A stretch of DNA of 36,254 nt from a virus (lineage: Duplodnaviria > Heunggongvirae > Uroviricota > Caudoviricetes). Positions within the stretch are counted from its first letter, which is position 1, and each line of letters begins with the position of its first letter. The position numbers and the translations under genes were made by a program. Of this stretch, positions 2,215 to 16,713 are shown piece after piece. A model generated the notes under the pieces. That model had not been told where the DNA came from. It searched no databases and saw nothing but the letters and a program-made list of their open reading frames with translations. The stretch lies in the IMG/VR virus record IMGVR_UViG_2531839432_000012. One strand, given 5' to 3'.

Positions 2215-3192
2215 TTACATTCCTCCCAAGGGATTAAACCTCACCGCATCCTGCAAGTAATCCGGCGCAAGATGGGCATAAATCATCGTTGTCTGAATCT
2301 TTGCGTGCCCCAGAATTTTCTGGAGCGTCAGAATATTGCCGCCGTTCATCATGAAATGACTGGCGAATGTGTGGCGCAGCGCATGAACAGCCTGGCCGTC
2401 GGGAACATCAGGTGCGACCGTTTTGATGACATCGCGAACCAATGGATAATCCAGCGTCGGAAACACCAGTTTCCCGCCCCGTTTTTTGATCTTTTCAAAC
2501 AGGCTTTCAGAAATAGGAACGGTACGGTTTTTGCTGTTCTTCGTTTTTGAAAAAGTGATTCGACAATGAAGAACACGGCGCTGCTCCAGTGCCACTACCT
2601 CGCCCCATCGCGCCCCGGTCGACAGAAGGATTTCGACAGCCAGCCGTTCATCAGGATTTTCAGCCAGTGCATCCAGCAACTGAACACATTCAGACTTACT
2701 CAGATATCCCATTTCGCGCTCGTTAACCTTCATTCCTTTAAGGCCTTGAACGGGGTTATCGTTAAGAAAATGGCCGGATGAGATGAGTGCGGTAAACATC
2801 GCGCTTAACGCCCCAATCTCTCGATTAATAGTGCTGGGCTGTATCCCCTGCTCTATCCTGGACACACGTAGCTCGGTGAGCATCGTTGTATTAAGTTTAT
2901 GCACGCACGGGTCATCCATTGCCTCACTCAAGCGCAGCAATTTAAGGCGCGTGTTATGCCCTGACTTCATTAGCTGGCCGTGGTATTTCCACCACAAGTC
3001 AATAAGCACTGACAGCGGACGGCGATCAATGGAGTTTCCTTTCCACTCATTGTTATGCTGTTGCGCCAGCACCCACCGCTCATATAAAACTGCATCCGAT
3101 TTCGTTTTAAATTTTTTACGAATGCGTTTGCCTTTACGCCCCTCCGGGCGCATGTCAAGAAGATACCCTCCCGGAATTGATTTTATGCTCAT
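2215..3192 (-). CDS. int: P2-family tyrosine integrase (start taken at MSIKSIPGGY, not the longer ORF start at 3342)
   Basis: Translation has the phage-integrase C-terminal signature (HALRHTFASHFMMNGGNILTLQKILGHAKIQTTMIYAHL) and N-terminal arm-binding region; position next to the repressor as in P2. Confidence 0.85.
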   Translation of the reverse strand: MSIKSIPGGYLLDMRPEGRKGKRIRKKFKTKSDAVLYERWVLAQQHNNEWKGNSIDRRPLSVLIDLWWKYHGQLMKSGHNTRLKLLRLSEAMDDPCVHKLNTTMLTELRVSRIEQGIQPSTINREIGALSAMFTALISSGHFLNDNPVQGLKGMKVNEREMGYLSKSECVQLLDALAENPDERLAVEILLSTGARWGEVVALEQRRVLHCRITFSKTKNSKNRTVPISESLFEKIKKRGGKLVFPTLDYPLVRDVIKTVAPDVPDGQAVHALRHTFASHFMMNGGNILTLQKILGHAKIQTTMIYAHLAPDYLQDAVRFNPLGGM

Positions 3193-3241
3193 TCGTGAAA
3201 CCCCAGCGTTACAAGACCACCATGCCCCCAGCGCTCCATGA

Positions 3242-3553
3242 TTAGCCGGGCTGTGTGCCAGTCTTGCGGGGTTTTTGAGAAGGCGATGTGCTTTTTGGCC
3301 CATCAGGGGAGAGAGACGGACTGATCTGCCCAGCAGCCTCATTTGTTTCGTTACTCATCAACCACGTGGTGTATTTTTTAAAGTTCGGATGCATTGTGAT
3401 TTTCAGTAAAACCTCCGTCCCCACACCTCTAATACCAGTCTCATATTGCTTAACTGTACCAACCGCAATACCTATTGAATCCGCGAACTTTGCCTGGCTA
3501 AGTCCCTCAGATTCTCGAATTGCTTTTAGCTTCTTTGATATCTCTATTGACAT
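3242..3553 (-). CDS. Immunity repressor (P2 C-like), small HTH protein (start taken at MSIEISKKLKAIRESEGLSQ)
   Basis: HTH-like segment LSQAKFADSIGIAVGTVKQYETG; divergent from the early operon as in P2 int-C / cox. Confidence 0.7.
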   Translation of the reverse strand: MSIEISKKLKAIRESEGLSQAKFADSIGIAVGTVKQYETGIRGVGTEVLLKITMHPNFKKYTTWLMSNETNEAAGQISPSLSPDGPKSTSPSQKPRKTGTQPG

Positions 3554-3648
3554 GGTGTGCACCTGAATACTATATTGGTTATCAGTTGAGTACCACTTGA
3601 CGCCACAAAAAGCCACAAATAGCACCAGATTGAATAGGTTATCACATC
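3554..3648. promoter_or_regulatory. Divergent early control region (Pc/Pe-equivalent) with candidate operator direct repeats
   Basis: Seen in sequence: GCCACAAA at 3602..3609 and 3612..3619 (10-bp periodicity); GGTTATCA at 3577..3584 and 3637..3644; TTGACG -35-like hexamer at 3596..3601. Confidence 0.4.
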
Positions 3649-4290: not shown

Positions 4291-4578
4291 ATGACCAAAG
4301 ACCATGCACAAGGGGTATTTATCCGTTTTATTGATTTTCGCGGTGAACTGTTATTACGTGCATCCGCTATTGACGGAGTGACTCCGGCGGGTAAAAACGG
4401 AGCCGACGAAGCCACTTACGTTTATCTGAACGGCACGCGACTGCTTGTGGAACTTCCGTACCAGACCGTACGAGAAATCATTAGCGAAGCTGAAAAGGCA
4501 CGCCAGGTTAATGGCGATGAACCCTATATCGAAATTATTTGTATGGATTCAGAAGCTGAAATACAGAAAGCAGATTAA
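4291..4578 (+). CDS. Hypothetical early protein (95 aa; start at ATG 4291 inside the longer ORF 4177..4578)
   Basis: In-frame ATG after the upstream stop; same operon. Confidence 0.5.
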   Translation: MTKDHAQGVFIRFIDFRGELLLRASAIDGVTPAGKNGADEATYVYLNGTRLLVELPYQTVREIISEAEKARQVNGDEPYIEIICMDSEAEIQKAD

Positions 4579-4589
4579 AGGGCGTTGTG

Positions 4590-4832
4590 ATGGGTAAAGA
4601 ATATAAAACTCTCATTAACAAAGCACTTGAGCGTTTTTATTTTCGCTTAAGTGCATCAGGCGCTCATGCTGAACGTGCGGCCCGTGACTCATTGACCAGA
4701 GCAATCCGAAGTCTGTATGACGTGGCTTTTTACGCTGATGATCTGGATGCACTTAACGAACTTTCCGAGCTGATCTGTGCCGCAGAATGCGGGGAACATA
4801 TTGAACCGTATAAGCTGGGAAATATCGCATGA
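4590..4832 (+). CDS. Hypothetical early protein (80 aa)
   Basis: ORF with adjacent GTG/ATG start; same operon. Confidence 0.5.
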   Translation: MGKEYKTLINKALERFYFRLSASGAHAERAARDSLTRAIRSLYDVAFYADDLDALNELSELICAAECGEHIEPYKLGNIA

Positions 4833-4966
4833 GTATATTTATTTCATGGCTTGTTCTGATTATTTCGGTGGACTGCGCCATTGGGATTATGCGAATTATT
4901 AATTCAGTGAAAAAGATCGAGCGTTTTTCTCTGATGAATAACGATACAAATAAAACATCAAATTAA
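4829..4966 (+). CDS. Possible small hydrophobic membrane peptide (45 aa, MSIFISWLVLIISVDCAIGIMRIINSVKKIERFSLMNNDTNKTSN), start overlapping the upstream stop (ATGA)
   Basis: Hand-translated from the sequence; below the ORF-track size cutoff; one predicted TM helix followed by a polar tail; AT-rich. Confidence 0.3.
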   Translation: MSIFISWLVLIISVDCAIGIMRIINSVKKIERFSLMNNDTNKTSN

Positions 4967-5033
4967 ATAAGAAAACGTGAAAACCATCCGTATTAACGGA
5001 GGTATTCGCACACGTAAATAACGGAGATATAAA

Positions 5034-5450
5034 ATGAACGCAAAAGAAGAAGGCATTATCGACACATTAAAAAAAATATCAAAAGCGGAAGATGAAATGG
5101 CTAAAGATGCCGTGAAGCGTAGCCAACATATGGCAGCACTTCACGCACTGACCATTGCAAAAATCACCGCTGACGCAGCCAAAATTATTGAGGAACAGGG
5201 CAAAAAAATCGACACTCTTAAAACACAGTCAACAGTTGCAGCCATGAATCCGCCCAGCATTGGACGCCGCATTCACATTCTTGGTTCGGCAATAATGACG
5301 CAATACACCATTATTGCCGAACTGCACGGCAAATACCTGATAACGCCTTACCACACAAAAGAGTCAGAGCTTCTGACAAATCTCCGCCTGATAGAACTCT
5401 CTCAAGCTGTATTCATTGATGACGCGCAACGTGCCGTATTTAACGCATAG
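5034..5450 (+). CDS. Hypothetical protein (138 aa) preceded by an AT-rich ~200-bp spacer
   Basis: ORF with AGGAG-like RBS region (acggagatataaaATG). Confidence 0.55.
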   Translation: MNAKEEGIIDTLKKISKAEDEMAKDAVKRSQHMAALHALTIAKITADAAKIIEEQGKKIDTLKTQSTVAAMNPPSIGRRIHILGSAIMTQYTIIAELHGKYLITPYHTKESELLTNLRLIELSQAVFIDDAQRAVFNA

Positions 5451-5677: not shown

Positions 5678-5940
5678 CCATTCTGGACTACATCGCTACC
5701 CATCCGGGTTGTAGCGGCGGAGAAATCGCCGCAGCACTGAATACTCCAACCACAGCCATTAATGCTGAGTTACGCCAACTTTGGCGCGGCGGCTTAGTCA
5801 TCAGAACAAACCGCAGCACAGGTGGTCGCGCTCGCAAAACTGGAGGCCAGGCTTCTTACCACGTAAACCCGATGCCGTTCGGGTGTAGCAATCCACTTAC
5901 TCACATGTTTAACCAGCTACTGAAGGAAGCCAGAGCATGA
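5674..5940 (+). CDS. Hypothetical protein (88 aa), possibly a small winged-helix DNA-binding protein
   Basis: Start overlaps the upstream stop (ATGA); HTH guess from the composition of the translation only. Confidence 0.45.
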   Translation: MTILDYIATHPGCSGGEIAAALNTPTTAINAELRQLWRGGLVIRTNRSTGGRARKTGGQASYHVNPMPFGCSNPLTHMFNQLLKEARA

Positions 5941-6236
5941 GCACCATCAACCACCAGAAGCTACGCGAACTGGCATTTACCCTGCAACGAATGGCAACGC
6001 CTCAAAAATTACTGGCATTTCGCGCAATGCTCTCGCCGTCTGCTGTGCTGGCACTGCTGGATGAGCTGGAGCACGCCAGAACCACGGCTCCTGCCATTCG
6101 CCTGACGCTCCATCATGAAATCGCTGATTTCTGCGCGACGTTGGAGGCGCCGGGCGAACCGGAAACGCCGGAAGCAATACAGCAAGAGCTGCTGCAACGC
6201 ATTGACAAGGTTTTTGATTTTTTTCTGAACCAGTAA
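5937..6236 (+). CDS. Hypothetical protein (99 aa)
   Basis: Start overlaps the upstream stop (ATGA); same operon. Confidence 0.5.
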   Translation: MSTINHQKLRELAFTLQRMATPQKLLAFRAMLSPSAVLALLDELEHARTTAPAIRLTLHHEIADFCATLEAPGEPETPEAIQQELLQRIDKVFDFFLNQ

Positions 6237-6558
6237 GAAACCAGAGCATGCACACACAAAAAAACCGCTTGCCACGCCGCAATCAGTCAGGTTACATTTC
6301 CGCTGCACCTCATAAAACGGGTGCCGGGATTTCCACCCCGCTGACTAGCAAAGCGCACAACCGCGCCAGCGGTTTTTTTGTGCGTACCGTATCGCCACGT
6401 CTTTTTCGCACACGAATTATGGTGGGGCGTATGGGGCCGACTTCGGTCGGGCCGGGTTCTTTGCTAGCCGGTTGTGGAAACCCTGTACGTCTCACCACCC
6501 CGAGTTTTCCACCTCTGGATGGTGAGTTTTTAAAACTTACTAGCAAAGAGGCCACACC
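6237..6558 (+). other. Structured non-coding region inside the early operon with three terminator-like hairpins and ACTAGCAAAG-type repeats; candidate attenuator or small RNA
   Basis: Seen in sequence: long-range inverted repeat AAAAAAACCGCTTG (about 6259..6272) / CAGCGGTTTTTTT (about 6367..6380); GC hairpin GGCCGAC-TTCG-GTCGGGCC near 6433..6452; hairpin CTCACCA...TGGTGAG followed by TTTTT near 6502..6535. Confidence 0.3.
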
Positions 6559-6861: not shown

Positions 6862-7251
6862 ATGATTGACGCTCATGACTTCACAAGATGGGTGCGCACA
6901 CAGGACACCCGTCTGGCTCCCGTTCTTCAGGGATTATTTGATCTCTACATCCGTGGTCGTGACAACAGAGCACGCACCACAAAACCGGAGAATGCAGACC
7001 CCCTTTATTTCACAGTAGACGACTGCTACCGCGTGGACTTCACACCACACGGGCTGGCGTTGCACTGCCTGACACCACACGGAGAATCACTGCTGGCGTA
7101 TTACGACTCCCCGGCCTCCGTATTTGCGGCAATGCTGGCGCATCGCACTGCTGGCGGGTGTGCCTCGCTGAGTGAATACACCGCTGAATTTAACCGCCTT
7201 TCTGCCCTCTTCTCGCAGGAGTGGCAGCGCGTGACGGGATACCAGCCATGA
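6862..7251 (+). CDS. Hypothetical early protein (129 aa) immediately upstream of the replication gene
   Basis: ORF; its stop overlaps the A start (ATGA). Confidence 0.5.
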   Translation: MIDAHDFTRWVRTQDTRLAPVLQGLFDLYIRGRDNRARTTKPENADPLYFTVDDCYRVDFTPHGLALHCLTPHGESLLAYYDSPASVFAAMLAHRTAGGCASLSEYTAEFNRLSALFSQEWQRVTGYQP

Positions 7252-10088
7252 GTGAGTTTGCATGGAGCTGGAATGAACCACGGCCAGCCATTGATCCGGC
7301 CAGATTTACGGAGCACAGGCAGGAAACTGAAACCGACCTGCAACGCGCCATCCGTTACTACCTTGAGGCAGACAAAAAGGCTCTGGAAGAACAGGAAGCG
7401 AAGGAGGAAGCCTTTTTCGCACAATCCACCGTGGGTAAAAAACTCATGGCATCCCTTGAGGAAGCCGGACAGCGTGAAAAGCTGGCACAAAGCATCATCA
7501 GCAAGCGTCAGGCAACAGAACAAGACCCGGTGGCCCGTGCTTTTGCCACACTGAAGGTGCTTCCCGTTTATCTGCGTGAACCTCTGAGCCGCCACCTCTC
7601 TTTCCTGCGCAAAAAACAGGAAGCCGATCGCCAGAAAGGCAAAAAGAGCTGGCAGGCTGAACGCTACGCGCGCGGAACCCTGCGCAAAATATTCCAACGT
7701 CTGGACCGCACCGATCACCGCTGGCTGACACCGGGTTATCGCTCCCTTGCCGGACGCGAACGCCTGGACGATTTGCTTTACCTACCGCAGCTCAACAAAC
7801 ACCAGATACAGACGCTGGCCACCATGACGGCGGCGATGTTCAGCAGCACCTTCGAAAAACTCTGCGATGGCTTTGGCGCGACTGATGGCGAACTGACCAT
7901 GGATGTAACGCTGAAGGCGTATCAGATGCTGGCCCGCATGGCGTTACACCTGCACGCCATGCCTCCACATTATGACGCACTGACAACAGACAAAAACCGG
8001 AGGAACGAACCGGACACGGAGCTGCTGCCGGGCGCAATCCTTCGCCTGACCTGTGCGGAATGGTGGAAACGCAAACTGTGGCTGTTACGTTGCGAGTGGA
8101 GAGAAGAACAACTCCGCGCCGCCTGTCTGGTTTCCAGAAAAACATCACCCTATCTGAGCCAGGACGCGTTAAGCGAGTTTCGCGCACAGCGCGACAAAAC
8201 ACGCGATTTCCTGAAAAGTTTCATGCTGGAAAATGAAGACGGGTTTACGATTGATCTCGAGACGGTGTATTACGCGGGAGTAAGTAACCCGGTTCACCGT
8301 AAGGCAGAAATGATGGCCACAATGAAGGGGCTGGAACTTCTGGCCGAAGCCCGTGGCGACAAAGCGGTGTTTCTGACTGTCACCTGCCCGTCAAAATACC
8401 ACGCCACAACAGAGAACGGTCATCCGAATCCCAAATGGAACGGGGCCACCATGCGCGACTCCAGCGATTACCTGGTTAACACGTTTTTTGCAGCGGTCCG
8501 CAAGAAACTGAACCGCGATGGCCTGCGCTGGTATGGCATCCGCACGGTGGAGCCTCACCATGACGGCACCGTGCACTGGCATATGATGGTCTTTGCTCAT
8601 CCGGAAGAAATCGACAGCATTGTGGCCATCACCCGCGATATTGCCATTCAGGAAGACCGCCACGAGCTGGGCGATGACATAACTCCGCGTTTTAAGGCGG
8701 AGTACGTAGACGGCTCAAAAGGCACACCAACCAGCTATATCGCGACCTACATCGGAAAAAACCTGGACAGCCGCGCCGTGGATGGCATCGACCCGAAAAC
8801 GGGCAAGCCACGCGTTGAGCACGAAACCGGAAAATCAATGGCAGAGAGCGTGGAACGCGCCATCGGCTGGGGGCGCCTTCACCGGGTCCGCCAGTTCCAG
8901 TTCTTTGGTATCCCCTCCCGTCAGGTGTGGCGTGAACTGCGTCGCCTTGCCAGCCAGATGGCACGCAACCCGGAAGGCCCGCAACGGCTGAAGGATGACG
9001 CAATGGACTCGGTTCTTGCTGCCGCTGATGCCGGATGTTTTGCCACCTACATAGAGAAACAGGGCGGCGTACTTGTTCCACGCAAAGACTACCTGATTCG
9101 CACCGCCTACGACCTCGCAGATGAGCTGAACGATTACGGCGAACAGAGCGTACAGATTTACGGGATCTGGTCACCACTCATCGGGGAATCCTCCCGTGTG
9201 TGCACGCACCCGGATAACTGGAAGCTGGTAAGACGTAAACCTGAAGCAGAAGACATCGCCCGCGAAAATGGTTTTGACCTTCAGGGCGGCCCTGCCGCCC
9301 CTTGGACTCGTGGCAATAACTGTCCCCGTGTACAGGAAACGGACAACAACGGGACAGAACAGCCGGAAGAACGGCCAGCACCGTGGCCGCAGCTCCCTGA
9401 CGGCGTTGAAGTGAACGTATGGATGCGCTCACTGAAACGGCACGAACGCCGGGCGCTGATGCGTTCGCTTCGTGACAAACAGGCAAAAAACAGCAGTGAT
9501 GAAATGCAGAGCTGGACACAGAGCCGCAAACAGCAGCGGCCTTTGCCTGATAACCACGAATTACTCGCTAAAGAATGGCGGGAATCTGCCGAATCTCTCG
9601 GCCTGCATATCGGTGAACAGCAGATGCAGCACCTGTTACGGGGCGGCAGCCTGTACGTTGACGGCAGCATCATTGCACCGCAGGGATTTGAAATTGTACG
9701 CAAACCGGATACCCGCCCGGACAGCCGAATCACGCAGTTCTGGCAGCGCCTGAGCCGTAATCACGGCGTAAGCAGCACGGAGATCCGCCATAACCCGGTC
9801 GCCAGCTATCTGGAACAGCTGGGGGCATCAGCCCCCGAAGCCGCCGCACGCCTGGCATCCACACTTCAGCAGGACCAGAACACCATGAAAACCCCCGTTA
9901 CCGTGCTTTCTGACATGCTGCGCGCCATCCGTGACGCAGAGCACGCACAGAGAATCAGTGAAACCACTGAACGCGCCCACCGCAAAGCAGACCTGCTGCG
10001 GGGTGGCTTGACCCGTGGGAACAAAAAACAGACAGAAACGGGATCCACGAATCCCGTAAATGACCAAAAAACGCGCAGCGATATATGA
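7248..10088 (+). CDS. A: Replication initiation protein (P2 gpA-like rolling-circle replication endonuclease), 946 aa; start taken at MSEFAWSW
   Basis: Very large early ORF at the position of P2 A after the early small genes; conserved-looking core (HxH-type segment VHWHMMVF, YIATYIGKN); identification by size, position and motifs, not a search. Confidence 0.75.
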   Translation: MSEFAWSWNEPRPAIDPARFTEHRQETETDLQRAIRYYLEADKKALEEQEAKEEAFFAQSTVGKKLMASLEEAGQREKLAQSIISKRQATEQDPVARAFATLKVLPVYLREPLSRHLSFLRKKQEADRQKGKKSWQAERYARGTLRKIFQRLDRTDHRWLTPGYRSLAGRERLDDLLYLPQLNKHQIQTLATMTAAMFSSTFEKLCDGFGATDGELTMDVTLKAYQMLARMALHLHAMPPHYDALTTDKNRRNEPDTELLPGAILRLTCAEWWKRKLWLLRCEWREEQLRAACLVSRKTSPYLSQDALSEFRAQRDKTRDFLKSFMLENEDGFTIDLETVYYAGVSNPVHRKAEMMATMKGLELLAEARGDKAVFLTVTCPSKYHATTENGHPNPKWNGATMRDSSDYLVNTFFAAVRKKLNRDGLRWYGIRTVEPHHDGTVHWHMMVFAHPEEIDSIVAITRDIAIQEDRHELGDDITPRFKAEYVDGSKGTPTSYIATYIGKNLDSRAVDGIDPKTGKPRVEHETGKSMAESVERAIGWGRLHRVRQFQFFGIPSRQVWRELRRLASQMARNPEGPQRLKDDAMDSVLAAADAGCFATYIEKQGGVLVPRKDYLIRTAYDLADELNDYGEQSVQIYGIWSPLIGESSRVCTHPDNWKLVRRKPEAEDIARENGFDLQGGPAAPWTRGNNCPRVQETDNNGTEQPEERPAPWPQLPDGVEVNVWMRSLKRHERRALMRSLRDKQAKNSSDEMQSWTQSRKQQRPLPDNHELLAKEWRESAESLGLHIGEQQMQHLLRGGSLYVDGSIIAPQGFEIVRKPDTRPDSRITQFWQRLSRNHGVSSTEIRHNPVASYLEQLGASAPEAAARLASTLQQDQNTMKTPVTVLSDMLRAIRDAEHAQRISETTERAHRKADLLRGGLTRGNKKQTETGSTNPVNDQKTRSDI

Positions 10089-10137
10089 AGCGCGCACAAA
10101 ACAGGCAAAAACGGGATTTCAGAATCCCGTAAACGAT
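10022..10137. repeat. Two ~40-bp direct repeats, each containing a hairpin ACGGGAT-N6-ATCCCGT, flanking a possible promoter; candidate parC-like centromere/operator
   Basis: Seen in sequence: caaaaaacagacagaaACGGGATccacgaATCCCGTaaatga (10022..10063) and cacaaaacaggcaaaaACGGGATttcagaATCCCGTaaacga (10096..10137); TATAT-containing spacer between them; the first repeat overlaps the A 3' end. Confidence 0.4.
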
Positions 10138-10164: not shown

Positions 10165-11124
10165 ATGAAAATTTGTATCGACGACGGCTCCACCAACATC
10201 AAGCTGGCATGGACTGAGAACGGCGAACGCCGCAACGCCATCAGCCCGAACAGCTTCAAGTCGGAATGGTCTGCGCCGTTCGGTGGCACGCAGCCCGCGA
10301 ACTATATGCTTGATGGCGTGCGCTATGGTTTTGATCCGGTCAGCGATCGCTTTGTCCAGACGACCGACACGCAATACCAATACAGAGATGTGAATGTCAT
10401 TGCCATTCATCACGCGCTGGTCAAATCAGGCATCACGCCACAGGAGGTGGATGTGGTTGTCACCCTGCCACTGAGCGAGTATTTCGACACAAACGCACAG
10501 CCGGACATGGCCAACATCAACCGCAAAAAAGCGAACGTTATGCGCCCGGTGGAGTACCAGAACGGCGAAGCATTCACTATCCGTAACGTGCGGGTTATGC
10601 CTGAATCCATTCCGGCTGGCTTTAAGGCACTGGCTGACATGAGTCCGTTTGAATCCCTGCTGATTGTGGATTTGGGCGGAACCACGCTGGATGTGGCAAA
10701 GGTTCAGGGGCAACTGGCAGGTATCAGCCAGGTGTTTTGCGATCCACACGTAGGCGTTTCTCTGATGGCCGATGCCGTACTGTCGGTGATGGCCACTAAC
10801 GGTATGCGCACCAGTCACCACATCGCCAATACCATTATCGAACATCGCCATGATGAAGCCTGGCTGCGCCAGCACATCCACAATGACGCGCATTACGCCA
10901 GCCTGATGGCGGTTATTCGTGAAAAGGAAGAAACACTGAAACAACGCGTGATCCGCGCGCTGGCGGGTTTTTCGGGTTACGGTCGGGTGATGGTTGTCGG
11001 TGGCGGGGCGGAGATTGTGGCACCCGCTATCCGCGAAGCCTGCGGAGTTAATGCGACTTTCATCGCGGACGGGGTGCCACAGTTTGCTCTGGTTAATGGG
11101 CTGTACGCAATGGACAAGGAGTAA
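10165..11124 (+). CDS. parM: Actin-like segregation ATPase, ParM/StbA family
   Basis: Translation matches remembered plasmid R1 ParM over its length, including IDDGSTNIKL, VMPESIPAG, DLGGTTLD, GGGAE; good RBS. Confidence 0.85.
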   Translation: MKICIDDGSTNIKLAWTENGERRNAISPNSFKSEWSAPFGGTQPANYMLDGVRYGFDPVSDRFVQTTDTQYQYRDVNVIAIHHALVKSGITPQEVDVVVTLPLSEYFDTNAQPDMANINRKKANVMRPVEYQNGEAFTIRNVRVMPESIPAGFKALADMSPFESLLIVDLGGTTLDVAKVQGQLAGISQVFCDPHVGVSLMADAVLSVMATNGMRTSHHIANTIIEHRHDEAWLRQHIHNDAHYASLMAVIREKEETLKQRVIRALAGFSGYGRVMVVGGGAEIVAPAIREACGVNATFIADGVPQFALVNGLYAMDKE

Positions 11125-11128
11125 ACCA

Positions 11129-11440
11129 ATGACGACACCAACCAGACGGATAAGTTTCTATCTGAAGCCCGCCGCCGTCAAGAACGAAGGCGAAGCATGC
11201 GCCTGGCTGGACAGCCTTACACCAGAAGCCCGCAAAAGCGGCCAACGCGTGGCTTTTCTGGCCGGGCTGGCACTTCTGAAAATGAATCCGGCAGAGGCTT
11301 ACCGACTGGCTGCATGGGCTGATGATGAGGCGTTATCAGTGACACAAACCAGGACAGAACGCCCCGCGTCACAGCCAGTATCAACCGCACAGATAACCAG
11401 TCAGATGGCCGGAAATATCCGGGCGTTATTTCCCGAATAA
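11129..11440 (+). CDS. parR: ParR/StbB-like centromere-binding adaptor (start at ATG 11129, not 10994)
   Basis: N-terminal ISFYLKPAAV...LDSLTPEARKSGQRVAFLAGLAL resembles the remembered ParR ribbon-helix-helix N-terminus; RBS AAGGAG 7 nt upstream; immediately downstream of parM. Confidence 0.65.
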   Translation: MTTPTRRISFYLKPAAVKNEGEACAWLDSLTPEARKSGQRVAFLAGLALLKMNPAEAYRLAAWADDEALSVTQTRTERPASQPVSTAQITSQMAGNIRALFPE

Positions 11441-11445
11441 CACAA

Positions 11446-11469
11446 CATCAGGGCGCATCCGCCCTGATG
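11446..11469 (+). terminator. Strong hairpin (10-bp stem CATCAGGGCG / CGCCCTGATG, loop CATC) after parR; weak U-tract
   Basis: Seen in sequence. Confidence 0.35.
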
Positions 11470-11503
11470 ACTTTAACCCGGGAACATAAACAAGGGGGAC
11501 ACA

Positions 11504-11836
11504 ATGCAACACATTGACAGAGAAAAAGCGCAGCGACTGATTGAGCGGATGGAAGCGCTGGCGAAAGAAGAAAATGTCAACATCCAAAAAATAGCTGAAT
11601 GTGGCCAGATAGTTCTTCGTCGTGAAAAAGACCTCAAACAACTGATGTCTGGCGAAACCAGCAAAACATGGACTTCAGGCGAGGAGACGGTTTATTGCAG
11701 TTTCTGCAATAAATCCCAGCACGAAGTCACAAAGGTGATTGCCGGACCGTCTGTTTACATCTGCAATGAGTGCGTGGATTTGTGCAATGAAATTATCAGG
11801 AAAGAAGTGACAGACAAAAAGGAAAAAAACGCATGA
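11504..11836 (+). CDS. ClpX-type C4 zinc-finger domain protein (110 aa), first gene of a five-gene coupled operon
   Basis: C-terminal half [37 protein letters not shown] closely resembles the N-terminal zinc-binding domain of ClpX; RBS GGGGGA upstream. Confidence 0.7.
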
Positions 11837-12168
11837 ACAGAAAACAAAAACAAGAGTTGAAATACTTTTTATGTAAAGAAATTGCCAGGCTTGAAGATGC
11901 AGAATCACAATCATCAGAAATTCCGTTCGGAATGGATATCAACGACGCCCGTATACTCCAGGCATACCGCATAGCTCAGGCTGCACTACAGGCAAAACCG
12001 TCAGATGGACTGGTTAGAGCAGTACGTTTCTATGAACTGGTAAAGCGTGAGAATCCGCCAGCCGAAACCGGAGCATGGAAAGACGCTGTTGACTGGGTGC
12101 TCAAAGAGGCTTGCCATGCTGTAAACATTGGTATCAAGGGAGGGGGATATGGCAACCAACAACCGTAA
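11833..12168 (+). CDS. Hypothetical protein (111 aa)
   Basis: Start overlaps the upstream stop (ATGA). Confidence 0.5.
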
Positions 12169-12343
12169 AGCAAAGATTCTGTTAGTTCGTAGAAACGCTC
12201 CTGGCGTCTGGCAGTGGGTGAGACTCAGCAACCGACGGATGGGGTTGATGAAATATTACGGGATGATGGATTGTGGTTTTTGCAAAAAGCCCAGCGCGGC
12301 GCAAAACCGCTGGAAAAACCACTTGCGCACTAAAGGAGAGTGA
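12149..12343 (+). CDS. Hypothetical basic protein (64 aa; start at ATG 12149 with RBS AGGGAGGGGG)
   Basis: In-frame ATG preceded by a strong RBS; overlaps the end of the previous gene. Confidence 0.45.
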   Translation: MATNNRKAKILLVRRNAPGVWQWVRLSNRRMGLMKYYGMMDCGFCKKPSAAQNRWKNHLRTKGE

Positions 12344-12344
12344 T

Positions 12345-12554
12345 ATGGCTATCGCTGCAAGTTACACCATGCATCTCTATTGTGATTGCCTCCAGTGTAC
12401 AGATGGCAAATATAAGTCGCCAGACTTCGGTGAGTATATAGGTACGTCATGGGCTGGCTGTGCAAAAGAGGCGCGCAAGGATGGCTGGCGAATAAGCAAA
12501 GACAAAACGCGTGCTTTTGCGCCCGGGCATAAAGTTTTGAGGATTAACAAATGA
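12345..12554 (+). CDS. Hypothetical Cys-rich protein (69 aa; CDCLQC motif)
   Basis: ATG with RBS AAGGAGAG; start overlaps the previous stop. Confidence 0.5.
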   Translation: MAIAASYTMHLYCDCLQCTDGKYKSPDFGEYIGTSWAGCAKEARKDGWRISKDKTRAFAPGHKVLRINK

Positions 12555-12811
12555 CCACTTTAACCGACAAAGAACTGATTAAAGAAATCAAAGAGCGCAT
12601 AGGTAGCCTGGACGTTCGAGACAATATTGAACGCCGTGCTTATGAAATTGCACTGGCATCGCTGGAAGCAGAGCCAGTAGCATGGATGCATGTAAATAAC
12701 GGCATCGGAATACCAGCAATAACAAGGAGTAAAGATGTTGCAGAGAGTTGGTTATCAAAAGGCTGGTATGTCCAACCCTTACATCTAGCCCAGCCTGCAT
12801 CAAAGCTATAG
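12551..12811 (+). CDS. Hypothetical protein (86 aa), last gene of the operon
   Basis: Start overlaps the previous stop (ATGA); followed by a terminator. Confidence 0.5.
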   Translation: MTTLTDKELIKEIKERIGSLDVRDNIERRAYEIALASLEAEPVAWMHVNNGIGIPAITRSKDVAESWLSKGWYVQPLHLAQPASKL

Positions 12812-12820
12812 AAATGAGCC

Positions 12821-12850
12821 AAACGCCCTCTTCCAGGGCGTTTATTTCAA
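12821..12850 (+). terminator. Rho-independent terminator (AAACGCCCT-cttcc-AGGGCGTTT + TATTTCA)
   Basis: Seen in sequence directly after the stop at 12811. Confidence 0.55.
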
Positions 12851-13248
12851 TGCACAATAGCGCACAAATTTGCACAATTTTTTTGAACGACTTTTTGCCC
12901 TTCCGGCCCGCGTGGCGGCTGGATCCGTCAAGGATCCGTGCGTGCACAAAAAAACGCGCTTTTTCTACGCGCAGGTGACGGGGGAACAGCCCGCGTTTCA
13001 GGGGGTAAATAGCACTCCCTGAACGATGTCGCAGCGACACAACAGAATGGCTGTATCGCTCACGCTGAGCGTGAAAAAGACGTAAGGGGTTCTGATTTGA
13101 TGGGATGAAAGGTAAGGCCGTCAAAATCGCACTGAGGCGGCGAGAAAATGCAGTCAGCGCGGTGGGATTGTGTAAGAGTCTGGCCGTCGATGATAGCGAT
13201 AAGTCGGAAGACGTCGTGAAATTATCTGATTGATACGGGAGCTGGAGA

Positions 13249-13277: not shown

Positions 13278-13376
13278 GAAGCAGCAGACAAGCGAAGCGC
13301 GTCAGTGATGCAGCACCTTGCCGACCACACTTCATAAGTGCAAAATACGAGCAAAGAAATCAATGGAGGCTGTTTT

Positions 13377-13901
13377 ATGGTCATTAATTACAAGCAGTTA
13401 CGAGAAAAACGAGAGCAGGTAAAGGAAAGTTTTCGCCGCAATGAAGATCTGACCCCGCTTGTACACCTTGCCCAGGGAATTGTTGATGCTTATGAAATCT
13501 CTCTGGAGCTGCCATCACAGACATGGACGGATAGCGATGGTAATCGCCAGCATTACGTTTCATGCGGACTGGAAACAACTGAAGGGGTTCGCAGAATGCC
13601 TTTATCTCAGATTCCTGCCGCTACCCCCAAAGCAAGGGGCGGCAATGATGAGCGAAAACTGATTTTCAGCATTGAGACAGTGGTTGACGACACACCTGGC
13701 GAAGTCGCGTTCGTGCATACTCCTCTTTCGATCGCAATGTATAACGATGAAATACAGGTTCGCGTTAATAATAATATCGTGCCACTTAAAGAAGGTAATT
13801 CACCATACACCACCGTTTGTGAAGCCATCCAATATTACGTTCTCTCTGAAATTGATAATCTCAAGCCTGACGGCACCCAGAAAATGGTTCAACTCTGGTA
13901 A
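13377..13901 (+). CDS. Hypothetical protein (174 aa; start at ATG 13377 with RBS GGAGG)
   Basis: ORF convergent with the portal gene; no recognisable motif. Confidence 0.55.
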   Translation: MVINYKQLREKREQVKESFRRNEDLTPLVHLAQGIVDAYEISLELPSQTWTDSDGNRQHYVSCGLETTEGVRRMPLSQIPAATPKARGGNDERKLIFSIETVVDDTPGEVAFVHTPLSIAMYNDEIQVRVNNNIVPLKEGNSPYTTVCEAIQYYVLSEIDNLKPDGTQKMVQLW

Positions 13902-13907
13902 AAAGGA

Positions 13908-13932
13908 CAGCCCCATCACGGGGCTGTTTTTT
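13908..13932. terminator. Bidirectional terminator-like hairpin (CAGCCCCATCACGGGGCTG + TTTTTT) between the convergent 13377..13901 gene and portal gene Q
   Basis: Seen in sequence; overlaps the last codons of Q. Confidence 0.5.
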
Positions 13933-14962
13933 CATCAAGAAGAGCATAAGAATTAAAACGGATCACCTCTTCACCAAGCCAGTCATTGATGTGCTTCATG
14001 GCCTCCATGACAGGCATCAGCTCGTTAATTGCGTAAACCCGCGCTGCCTTCTCCACATCACCAAACGCACTTTTTTCGCCCGGCATCGCCCCCATCAGTT
14101 GCGGCGGAACGCGGTGCGAAGCCAGCACATCATCACGGGATGCCGCCTTAACATTCATGAACTCATCCTTTGCGGTGATCTGCTGGAACGGCAAAATTTG
14201 CACCCCCTCTTTGCCCCCGTTGGGCGCATGAATGAGCACGTTTTTAAACGCACCACCACCACGTGCCCCCTGTAGCGTTTCCTTCAGGGAGTCCATGCTT
14301 TCGCGGTTTACCTGCGCTGCACCGATGTAGATGATGCACCCGGCGTGGGATCCGTTGTCGTAGTACAGCTTTCTGAACATGTCCGCCGAATGAGACAGGC
14401 TGGCCGAGAGTAATGCGCCAAGATATTCCGGCATGCCGTAGATTTCCTGGTTAATATCCGGATTCATCAGGTGGCACACTTTGCCAGGGCGAAACTGAAA
14501 CGCGTCCTTGCCATCCTGTACATACCACCATGATTCAAGATCGCTTCCGCGTCGCATGTATTTCGCCAGGGCGTGCCGTAATTTAAGCGGTTCGCCGAGC
14601 ATATTGCTTCGAAGCTCAAGGAATGCGTTACCGAATACAAACCAGTCCAGCGCCAGCGCCGAGAAATCCTGCCGGGAAAGCAGCGGGGGCGGAATATAGC
14701 AACCGAGCAATACATTGCGCTTAAAGTAAAGCGCAGACTGATGCCAGGACGTTTGCCGGGCGGCTCTTGCCAGACCGTACCAGTCCACCGGGGTTTCATA
14801 CCACCGCCCGTTATCAGCACAGTACATATTGTCCAGCAAATCATGCCCGGTCAGGCGATAAGGACCATCAAATGTGAATGCACTGAGCGATGATTCTTTC
14901 CTGAGCGCATCAGCGAGATCAATGCGTGAACTCATGCGCACTTTTTTATTTTTTCTGCTCAT
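13916..14962 (-). CDS. Q: Portal protein (P2 gpQ-like)
   Basis: 348-aa ORF directly downstream of and overlapping the large terminase gene, divergent from the O-N-M-L operon as in P2; size matches gpQ. Confidence 0.8.
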   Translation of the reverse strand: MSRKNKKVRMSSRIDLADALRKESSLSAFTFDGPYRLTGHDLLDNMYCADNGRWYETPVDWYGLARAARQTSWHQSALYFKRNVLLGCYIPPPLLSRQDFSALALDWFVFGNAFLELRSNMLGEPLKLRHALAKYMRRGSDLESWWYVQDGKDAFQFRPGKVCHLMNPDINQEIYGMPEYLGALLSASLSHSADMFRKLYYDNGSHAGCIIYIGAAQVNRESMDSLKETLQGARGGGAFKNVLIHAPNGGKEGVQILPFQQITAKDEFMNVKAASRDDVLASHRVPPQLMGAMPGEKSAFGDVEKAARVYAINELMPVMEAMKHINDWLGEEVIRFNSYALLDEKTAP

Positions 14963-16713
14963 CAGAACTCCATAACCGTGAAACGCTCGTTTTCTCCTTC
15001 GCCGCCAATCGGTTCGTTAATGACAGCAAGCATGGTTGCCCACGCAAGGTCGCCGTGGCTGATCCCCCTCGCGCGGTCCGTTTCGTAAGTGATAAAGCCG
15101 CCCGGTGTTTTCACCTTACGCACGGCGTTAAAGGCCGCGACCAGCTCGCGTTCGGCGCGATCGTATTCCCACCGCCCGGCACGCATTATTTGCAGCATTT
15201 TCAGTACCAGCGACCGTTTTGATGACAGCGTGAAGGTGTACGGAATAGCAGCAGGGAAAAACCGTTTCACTATCTGATAAACAGCCTCCCCGTTCCCGCC
15301 CGTCACATCAATGCCGATGTGTTCCACGTTGTAGCGATACGTGAACTCTTCAATGACTCTGGCCTGTTCTTCAAACTCCAGCCCCTGAACGCGTCGCGTC
15401 TCCACCGTTCGAAAACGGCCACCAGGAACAGCCGGAGGAACCACCACGGACACAGCGCCGCTGTCGCCGTTGCCACTGCTGCCGTTTGCGTCATACCCAA
15501 TCCATACCGGACGATTTCCCATCGGGCGGGGAGCAAAAGGTTTCCAGTCTTTCCAGTCGTCGTATCCGTCAACGCCGCAGCCAATCAGGATATTCAGGTT
15601 AAATGCCGATTCCCCTTCGCGGACAAACTCACACATATAGAGATTGCGGAACTCGTCTTCGGTGTTTTCATCACGAATTTCATCAATATCGGTGTGTTTC
15701 CAGCCGTGATTAACCACATCTTCCAGCGTGACAATTTGCCGCCACGTCCGGTCGGGGCAGATAAGCCCGTTATGCAGCGTTTTCCAGTCCACAGAAAAAC
15801 GCTGGCGTTTATGCGCGGCCTTTTTCTCGTTCCAGCGGTCGCCGTTCCAGTAGACGTATGCCTCGTGCGTTTCGGTTGATGGCGTGGAGAAGTAGGTGCG
15901 CCGCAGTCCGCTGAGGGTTGCCATAGCGCCAGCCACCTTGCGCAGTTCAGCAAAGCGACTGACCCAGAAAAATTCATCAAAATAAAAATTGCCTGTGTAG
16001 GACTGTGCCGTCGCAGCAGAAGTACCGAGAAAATGCAGTTCTGCGCCGTTGGAGAGGATGATTTTATCGCCCCCTTTCAGCTCCACATCAACTTCAGCCG
16101 CGGCCTTCTGAATAATGCTTTTAAACTGGAACGCCTGACGACGCGACGCAGACAAAAAAATCTGGTTACGCTGGTAAGGTTGTGCCACATCGTCACGCAG
16201 CGCCATCAGCAGTGCTTCCTGTGCAAAATACCAGGTCGCCCCAATCTGTCGGGATTTCAGGATCATCCTGTTACGTATCCCGGCTTCACTGCAAAGGGTC
16301 AGGGAGTCAAACCAGCCCCGCTGATGCCACTCCAGCCTGCTGATGATTTTTTCCCGCAGTGCGGCAATCTGCTCCGGCGTGAAATGATTTTTAAGTTTTT
16401 TCGCCCGGCCTTTCTTTCCTGTGGCCGTCGCATCCGGCTGGCCATCATGCAGTTTTTTAAGCTGCCGGGTCAGCAGGTCTATTTCCTTGAAGTCACCACC
16501 TGTTTTATTCTGTTTTTCAGTAAGCTGGATGAGGCGCGCATCGATGGATTGCGTGACACGCTGCACGGGTGGCGTTTCATCCCACTGGTCGCGTTTTTTC
16601 CACGCATAAATCGTGTTCGGGTTTATTCCCATCAGACGTGATATTTCTGCGGGCGGATAACCCTGCCAGTAAAGTTGCCGCGCACGCTGGCGCACAAAAG
16701 CGTCCTGAATCAT
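14962..16713 (-). CDS. P: Terminase large (ATPase) subunit (P2 gpP-like)
   Basis: 583-aa ORF with N-terminal HTH-like segment (YWQGYPPAEISRLMGINPNTIYAWKKRD) and terminase-like core; P2 gene order. Confidence 0.85.
   Translation of the reverse strand: MIQDAFVRQRARQLYWQGYPPAEISRLMGINPNTIYAWKKRDQWDETPPVQRVTQSIDARLIQLTEKQNKTGGDFKEIDLLTRQLKKLHDGQPDATATGKKGRAKKLKNHFTPEQIAALREKIISRLEWHQRGWFDSLTLCSEAGIRNRMILKSRQIGATWYFAQEALLMALRDDVAQPYQRNQIFLSASRRQAFQFKSIIQKAAAEVDVELKGGDKIILSNGAELHFLGTSAATAQSYTGNFYFDEFFWVSRFAELRKVAGAMATLSGLRRTYFSTPSTETHEAYVYWNGDRWNEKKAAHKRQRFSVDWKTLHNGLICPDRTWRQIVTLEDVVNHGWKHTDIDEIRDENTEDEFRNLYMCEFVREGESAFNLNILIGCGVDGYDDWKDWKPFAPRPMGNRPVWIGYDANGSSGNGDSGAVSVVVPPAVPGGRFRTVETRRVQGLEFEEQARVIEEFTYRYNVEHIGIDVTGGNGEAVYQIVKRFFPAAIPYTFTLSSKRSLVLKMLQIMRAGRWEYDRAERELVAAFNAVRKVKTPGGFITYETDRARGISHGDLAWATMLAVINEPIGGEGENERFTVMEF

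Follow-up and report, generated by a model that had tools for sequence, protein, structure and literature searches.

Organization of the accessory cassette

The window analysed here, a 36,254-nt stretch of DNA (IMG/VR record IMGVR_UViG_2531839432_000012) to which all coordinates refer, is an Escherichia coli prophage of the P88-like group (Peduoviridae, Xuanwuvirus). At 11444-12850 on the plus strand it carries an accessory cassette of five small genes, designated g1–g5 in plus-strand order, together with a leader hairpin and a terminator-like hairpin. The first gene, g1, encodes a ClpX-type zinc-binding domain (ZBD) without the rest of ClpX, and is the main subject of this study. The cassette lies 3' of a gpA-like replication endonuclease (7221-10088, +; RefSeq annotation of near-identical prophages, and PF05840 on homologues) and of the backbone genes parM (10165-11124, +; Pfam StbA_N, E = 1e-81, and ParM_N) and parR/stbB (11129-11440, +; Pfam Plasmid_stab_B, E = 1.6e-24), the latter directly upstream. 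It is followed by the minus-strand portal and terminase genes (13916-16713), namely those for the portal protein gpQ (13916-14962; from the annotation of related prophages) and the large terminase (14962-16713).

The interval bordered by gpA on the left and gpQ on the right is the cos-proximal site where P2 carries old and tin, and has been documented as a hotspot for variable and often defensive cargo (PMC9122126; PMC13586616). The assignment of the cassette to the P2 tin/old-equivalent locus in the first-pass annotation was thus correct (PMC9122126). The contents of the interval vary among related prophages, and in three other P88-like phages the same slot is occupied by minus-strand cargo, consisting of a membrane protein, a 268-aa open reading frame (ORF) or a DUF4760 pair.

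The limits of the cassette were set by blastn comparison with P88-like phages that do not carry it (Shae_phiSM and Chuche). Homology to these phages ends at 11440-11443 and picks up again at 12851, and because it breaks off and resumes exactly at the edges, 11444-12850 represents one discrete insert. The GC content of the cassette is 46.0%, compared with 52.5% for the window. Between the parR stop codon and g1 lies a GC-rich leader hairpin with a 10-bp stem (11446-11469, +; −22.9 kcal/mol, z = −4.7), which belongs to the cassette and not to the backbone. It has no U tract on the plus strand, and is possibly an attenuator or an RNA-stabilising structure. The cassette is closed by a terminator-like hairpin with a U-rich tail (12820-12855, +), in which a hairpin at 12820-12844, folding at −17.1 kcal/mol (z = −3.6), is followed by UUUAUUUCAAU. 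This agrees with the terminator previously predicted after g5; a consensus scanner flagged this hairpin on the minus strand only.

The five ORFs occupy 11504-12811, with g2–g5 encoding 111, 64, 69 and 86 aa and a CDCLQC motif in g4, as originally described. The g1/g2 and g4/g5 junctions are 4-nt ATGA overlaps, g2 and g3 overlap by 20 nt, and g3 and g4 are separated by 1 nt. A purine-rich Shine-Dalgarno-like run, read from the sequence, precedes every start codon. With all genes on one strand, overlapping or abutting, and a single terminal hairpin, the cassette has the arrangement of a translationally coupled operon, and g1–g5 are predicted to share a single transcript. In the stretch from parR to g1, a promoter scan revealed no sigma-70-like site. 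Each of the five products has a PHROG match (E ≤ 1e-26), indicating that g1–g5 are genuine conserved phage genes.

A ClpX-type zinc-binding domain in the g1 product

The g1 product (11504-11836, +; 110 aa; PHROG 6797, E = 3e-58) consists of an orphan helical hairpin, a disordered linker and a C-terminal C4-type ZBD, as delineated by Pfam, PHROG and Protein Data Bank (PDB) comparisons and by an AlphaFold2 model with a predicted local distance difference test (pLDDT) score of 76.8. In the model, the N-terminal domain (aa 1-48; 11504-11647, +) forms two helices, at residues 6-22 and 27-48, and is joined by a disordered linker of 14 residues (49-62) to the ZBD (aa 63-109; 11690-11830, +; from alignment and model). 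The putative zinc ligands Cys65, Cys68, Cys87 and Cys90 follow a CxxC-(18)-CxxC pattern.

Comparison with Pfam zf-C4_ClpX (PF06689) gave a match with E = 2.9e-18 and 65.9 bits, against a gathering threshold of 27, covering profile positions 2-38 of 39. Matches to the solved chains 1OVX and 2DS5 of the E. coli ClpX ZBD had E values of about 1e-20 (3e-20 for 1OVX), and 32 of the 39 residues of the ZBD core are identical to E. coli ClpX. The predicted ZBD fold superimposes on 2DS5, 2DS6 and 2DS8 with a root-mean-square deviation of 0.7 Å over 40 columns and a target template-modelling (TM) score of 0.88-0.92. F67 and I97/I98 of g1 align with the F16/I46 patch of ClpX. Model and alignment together indicate that the zinc ligands, the ClpX fold and the hydrophobic F16/I46 docking patch are kept in the g1 ZBD, and ClpX-like zinc binding and homodimerisation are predicted.

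The ClpX equivalog models TIGR00382 and NF003745 were matched with 53 and 50.8 bits, over model positions 3-54 only. These scores are far below the respective cut-offs of 370.75 and 359, because g1 has no AAA+ module, its product stopping 20 residues past the ZBD cysteines. The g1 product belongs to the PF06689 domain family, and not to the ClpX family. Profile, sequence and predicted-fold comparisons therefore uphold the earlier description of a near-canonical ClpX C4 zinc domain without an AAA+ module, and the zinc-finger similarity is significant at the profile level.

The N-terminal domain is confined to the g1 family. A phmmer search of 1.8 billion representatives found no relatives outside the family apart from a repeat protein: ten of the 12 matches were family members or their fragments (one of them diverged, at 41% identity), and the other two were a fragment-length match (78 aa, residues 1-31) and a 1212-aa repeat protein. 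A profile search returned 70 clusters, in which every organism-named cluster was from Escherichia or Salmonella and every full-length one carried PF06689. Foldseek comparison of the g1 model with the PDB matched the ZBD only, with nothing for the N-terminal domain. E17, E23 and R40 of this domain are invariant across the family. The g1 product is thus best modelled as a free-standing mimic of the ClpX ZBD, attached through a flexible linker to a two-helix domain found in this family alone.

Conservation of the g1 ZBD

In the ZBD core, g1 and E. coli clpX are 82% identical in protein and 69% identical in DNA, and the same codon is used for only 12 of the 32 identical residues. Synonymous sites are saturated (pS 0.94, pN 0.15). 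Recent capture of g1 from host clpX was rejected on the basis of the low nucleotide identity and this saturation, which indicates that g1 has long evolved as a gene of its own and is not a recent clpX fragment. Comparisons among family members give ZBD dN/dS values of 0.09-0.37, and sequence comparison indicates that purifying selection has kept the ZBD near host ClpX in every lineage.

Residue conservation was analysed by fixed-offset comparison of 48 family members, using the Met1 numbering of ClpX, in which F17 corresponds to F16 and I47/I48 to I46/I47 of the literature. Cys15, Cys18, Cys37 and Cys40 are kept in 47-48 of the 48, the sole exception being a spacer variant that is misregistered by the fixed offset, and the 18-residue spacer is found in 47. 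F17 is likewise present in 47 members, and I47/I48 are I or V across the family. Identity to the E. coli ClpX ZBD ranges from 49 to 87% (median 72%), and the ZBD thus stays ClpX-like while identity in the N-terminal domain drops to about 22%. In the g1 of the window, L12 is replaced by Thr and D38 by Asn.

Distribution and genomic contexts of g1

Members of the g1 family (about 105-130 aa) occur in roughly 4% of complete E. coli genomes. By megablast, P88-type g1 was detected in 112 of 5426 E. coli genomes, compared with 1307 carrying the ParMR backbone. A tblastn search of 50,697 phage records found full-length copies in P88-like and D6-like phages only, and none in the P2-type reference phages. 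The possibility that the operon consists of core early genes of all P2-like phages is contradicted for g1 by these counts. Newer records of the Prokaryotic Genome Annotation Pipeline (PGAP) in RefSeq name the product 'ClpX C4-type zinc finger protein'; the name 'carboxylate--amine ligase', found in many older GenBank and RefSeq records, has no sequence support and is wrong.

In all 42 g1-bearing P88-like loci of IMG/VR, g1 lies immediately 3' of parR, and it is again directly after parR in a second lineage, with ParR 56% and g1 38% identical. In other P2-like prophages, g1 homologues are found on the plus strand within the gpA-to-gpQ interval, with or without ParMR, in lineages whose gpA and portal proteins are 35-96% and 29-77% identical to those of the window. 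In Salmonella and other P2-like lineages the homologue is often the sole gene ahead of Ogr or the portal gene. An obligatory link between g1 and ParMR was rejected, since several lineages have the zinc-finger gene without ParMR. The contexts indicate that g1 is an autonomous unit, recurring between gpA and gpQ in many P2-like phages of enterobacteria, and in D6-like phage-plasmids.

A diverged subtype of the zinc-finger gene is carried among ea-type genes by the phage-plasmid D6, which also has doc, and by about 106 D6-like phage-plasmids of E. coli, roughly 90-110 kb in size. Phages of Pseudomonas, Caulobacter and Klebsiella also have ORFs encoding only a ZBD, and further ones occur in PHROGs 12435 and 5259. 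A 71-nt direct repeat, which contains an inverted repeat and whose copies are 97% identical and 499 nt apart, flanks the zinc-finger gene in Salmonella P2-like prophages (5891-5961 and 6390-6460 of contig L012; also 5909-5961 and 6391-6460 of contig L011), which suggests that here the gene forms a single-gene cassette.

In two lineages, genes for a Fic/Doc toxin and a Phd/YefM-type antitoxin adjoin the zinc-finger gene: a P88-like sublineage represented in 18 E. coli genomes, and a distant P2-like phage in which the pair takes the place of parM and a parR remnant is left (Doc/Phd pairs at 4503-5266, −, of contig L042 and 2825-3630, −, of contig L056). The g1 identity of these lineages is only about 40%. 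In an unbiased sample of 16 viral contigs with the same Doc family, the zinc finger was adjacent in those two lineages only, and it was missing from two further P2-like hotspots and eight further phages; P1 carries Phd/Doc and no zinc-finger gene. As most copies of the Doc family occur without the zinc finger, a functional link between g1 and Phd/Doc is a weak lead rather than a finding.

The genes g2–g5 as exchangeable passengers

The helical g2 (11833-12168, +; 111 aa) is commonly but not invariably the partner of g1, following it in about 27 of the 42 loci and being absent from about 15. Together, g1 and g2 are 93-99% identical in amino acid sequence to their counterparts in P88, PhiR44_2 and the UTI89 prophage. 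The C-terminal ~50 residues of g2 form a near-invariant module common to many enterobacterial prophage proteins of ~148 aa; the AlphaFold2 model of g2 (pLDDT 62.6) was too poor for a fold search.

The remaining genes are homologous to those located between exo and xis (ea genes) in lambdoid phages. Across g3–g4, the window (12158-12554) is 97.7% identical in DNA over 397 nt to the exo-xis region of the Shiga toxin (Stx) phage 933W. Here g3 (12149-12343, +; 64 aa, PHROG 1380) is a swapped module, and the Cys-rich g4 (12345-12554, +; 69 aa, PHROG 926; CxCxxC...C) corresponds to 933W L0068, with 97% amino acid identity to L0068 residues 25-93. The N-terminal 44 residues of g5 (12551-12811, +; 86 aa, PHROG 5117/660/60) share 84% identity with 933W L0065, whose annotation notes a similarity to P22 EaA. 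The recombination joints within the cassette fall at gene boundaries.

The exact g1–g5 set was found in only one of the 42 IMG/VR g1 loci, the window itself. Elsewhere the genes behind g1 are a Doc/Phd pair, a pair encoding 118 and 87 aa, or a 174-aa protein with an Ead/Ea22-like protein. The conserved co-occurrence that marks a multi-gene system is thus absent for g1–g5. The coupled five-gene operon of the first-pass annotation stands as an arrangement of overlapping and abutting genes, and fails as a functional system: g1 alone is constant, and g3–g5 are swapped modules that also occur in the exo-xis regions of Stx phages. Searches of PADLOC, Pfam and NCBIfam yielded no function for g2–g5. 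Judged by their homologies, g2–g5 are unrelated small accessory genes of the ea/exo-xis type, shuffled and predicted to ride on a shared transcript, and what looks like a five-gene operon is a mosaic whose passengers can be exchanged.

Within this set, g2 and g5 are part of a modular protein family of prophages, whose small members have interchangeable halves. The two have a common helix motif, A-x-x-I-A-x-A-x-L-x-A, and correspond to the C-terminal and N-terminal halves, respectively, of single prophage proteins of ~124-150 aa such as P0167, which points to domain shuffling within one modular family. Apparent fusions of the ParM N-terminus to the g2 C-terminus (191 aa; P0130-P0136) were also found, one exact sequence occurring on 143 contigs, implying a common P88-like deletion derivative without parR and the zinc-finger gene.

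Neighbouring features of the window

Two copies of a 42-nt repeat, 81% identical (10022-10063 and 10095-10136), lie on either side of the gpA stop codon, a short distance 5' of parM. Each contains the palindromic core ACGGGAT-N5/6-ATCCCGT, and the pair may serve as a parC-like site for ParR binding or as paired terminators. On the other side of the cassette, a 187-aa ORF of unknown function (13338-13901, +; PHROG 5091) occupies its own indel (13311-13940), abutting the portal stop codon. It is found in PhiR44_2 and a few IMG/VR relatives and is missing in P88 and UTI89; a homologue with 51% identity lies at the same site in a different P2-like lineage, and the site looks like a second mini-hotspot. 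An Rfam scan of the whole window gave no match inside the cassette. Two plus-strand matches in the early region were above the gathering score, to the Hfq-binding small RNA isrK (63.8 bits) and the C4 antisense RNA, a P1/P7-type immunity RNA (78.8 bits), given in that order as 6305-6379 and 6415-6502.

Proposed mechanism of g1

We tentatively favour the explanation that g1 is a decoy of the ClpX N-domain, titrating adaptors and N-domain-dependent substrates. The protein would dimerise via its ZBD, as ClpX does, and would present a ClpX-type docking surface to these ligands, candidates being SspB and RssB and degrons of the lambda-O, MuA, UmuD' and MqsA type. Ligands bound in this way would be held back from ClpXP, while directly recognised substrates (ssrA tags) would be unaffected, and the net effect would be that the selectivity of ClpXP is reprogrammed, not blocked. 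Speculatively, the N-terminal domain of g1 could add avidity by oligomerisation, or specificity. Production of g1 is probably lytic or early, as suggested by its orientation, co-directional with the early replication operon, and by the lack of a consensus promoter-like site 3' of parR.

Several properties of ClpX are in line with such a decoy. RssB-dependent degradation of sigma-S by ClpXP is inhibited when purified ClpX ZBD is supplied in trans (PMC7226468, Fig. 1d). Trigger factor binds to the F16/I46 patch, which has been stated to overlap the sites for lambda-O, SspB and RssB (PMC7804408); the N-domain also binds the degron of the antitoxin MqsA (PMC8808172). The anti-phage system CmdTAC requires ClpX (bioRxiv 10.1101/2024.02.24.581848), so that a phage could profit from modulating ClpXP, one possible gain being shielding from ClpXP-dependent defence triggers.

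Other observations weigh against a decoy. Inhibition in vitro was obtained with 5-20 μM free ZBD against 0.6 μM ClpXP, a roughly 10-30-fold excess (PMC7226468), and a simple decoy would thus need high expression or added avidity. Two positions of ClpX have drifted in the g1 family: at L12, 31 of the 48 members have Thr and 5 have Pro, and at H23 there are 27 His, 12 Tyr and 7 Thr. In ClpX, L12S and H23A weaken degron binding (PMC8808172), and because of these changes the ligand specificity of the g1 family may differ from that of ClpX. Conservation of the F16/I46 residues could serve folding or dimerisation alone. Our literature search found no work on the function of a stand-alone ClpX ZBD from a phage.

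The more far-reaching proposal that g1 is a viral decoy of the docking domain of an AAA+ protease, and that its anti-adaptor mimicry selectively disables adaptor- and N-domain-dependent ClpXP activity while sparing bulk ssrA quality control, is put forward with considerable doubt. If true, such a decoy could be used to stop toxin-antitoxin or abortive-infection defences triggered by ClpXP, or to tune Phd/Doc-type addiction.

Alternative explanations

The ZBD is a dimerisation domain, as seen by crosslinking (PMC7226468) and in the 1OVX dimer, and the g1 ZBD might instead pair with the ZBD of a ClpX subunit. This would place the orphan N-terminal domain on the ClpX hexamer, to recruit a host, defence or phage protein for degradation or to cap the ring. 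In its helix and core residues g1 hardly differs from ClpX, its domains are joined by a flexible linker, and the invariant residues of the N-terminal domain are as expected for a defined partner. However, ClpX ZBDs are already paired in hexamers at high local concentration, and a competitor in trans would mostly reach newly made ClpX. No partner of the N-terminal domain is evident either, since it has no homologues outside the family and the neighbouring genes vary. We consider heterodimerisation with ClpX unlikely.

A function independent of ClpX is less probable again. The ZBD would here be a zinc-stabilised dimerisation module of a small regulator, acting on ParMR partition, replication or the lysis-lysogeny decision. 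A ZBD-like fold reportedly serves as such a module in the Bacillus subtilis anti-sigma factor CsfB, and the placement of g1 directly after parR in all P88-like loci and in the second lineage, the presence of relatives on phage-plasmids and the drift at L12 and H23 are compatible with this explanation. A pure dimerisation module, however, would not need to retain 72-87% identity to ClpX at surface positions while the remainder falls to about 22%. In addition, many copies have no ParMR nearby, and no DNA-binding or regulatory domain was detected in g1 with Pfam or NCBIfam.

Mu needs ClpX, and g1 could also be an exclusion or addiction factor expressed from the prophage for the benefit of the lysogen, which blocks ClpX-dependent steps of rival elements or tunes the ClpXP-labile Phd. 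P1 Phd is given as a ClpXP substrate (Lehnherr and Yarmolinsky 1995, as cited in PMC4803016), the hotspot holds old, tin and many defence systems (PMC9122126; PMC13586616), and the Doc/Phd-adjacent lineages and D6 combine the two gene types. Given the rarity of this adjacency, the lack of a zinc finger beside Phd/Doc in P1, the absence of any match to PADLOC-DB for g1–g5 or the 187-aa ORF (E ≤ 0.01), and an orientation that follows the early operon, unlike the opposite-strand cargo of the three relatives, this explanation is improbable, and a defence role for the cassette finds no support.

Relation to known systems

The closest counterpart of g1 is the ZBD of E. coli ClpX (PDB 1OVX, 2DS5-2DS8), which it resembles in its C4 site and spacer, core sequence, predicted fold and F16/I46 patch. 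It differs from ClpX in having no AAA+ unfoldase and in carrying the ZBD C-terminally, behind the orphan helical hairpin. Conceptually, a decoy would be similar to the anti-adaptors IraP, IraD and IraM of the RssB/ClpXP pathway, which are likewise small proteins that stop adaptor delivery to ClpXP (IraD and others, PMC7226468). IraP, IraD and IraM bind RssB by their own folds and contain no copy of the ClpX docking domain, and no sequence or domain relation to g1 was detected. Some Ira anti-adaptors were horizontally acquired. Phages also encode protease inhibitors, such as T4 PinA and T7 Gp4.5, which act on Lon, and lambda RexB, which acts on ClpXP. These share with the proposed g1 decoy the concept of a phage protein altering host ATP-dependent proteolysis, with unrelated sequences and targets, and to our knowledge none of the three mimics the substrate-docking domain of the protease itself.

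By location, the g1 cassette resembles old, tin and other gpA-gpQ cargo of P2-like phages, which occupy the same cos-proximal locus and are similarly variable (PMC9122126; PMC13586616), whereas g1 has no homology to PADLOC systems and is co-directional with the early operon. The passengers g3–g5 resemble the exo-xis (ea) genes of lambda and Stx phages (PMC3824215; PMC8614690), with g3–g4 near-identical to 933W and the g5 N-terminus equivalent to L0065; the g1 copies of D6 and of some P88-like phages lie beside Ead/Ea22-like genes. In contrast to the exo-xis regions, the setting of g3–g5 here is a P2-like phage, with gpA and ParMR ahead of them. No function has been described for L0068 and its neighbours.

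Significance

The RefSeq protein name and the hotspot itself are already known. The analysis points to g1 as a phage modulator of host proteolysis that would act by domain mimicry, the mechanism being inferred. Since the family is compact and the patch residues are defined, the decoy hypothesis is directly testable with existing ClpXP assays. Substrates of ClpXP that depend on the N-domain or on adaptors include sigma-S, lambda-O, MuA, SOS mutagenesis proteins and some antitoxins. If the hypothesis is true, a phage-encoded copy of the docking domain would be a ready-made selective inhibitor of ClpXP, and would show how temperate phages rewire host proteolysis.

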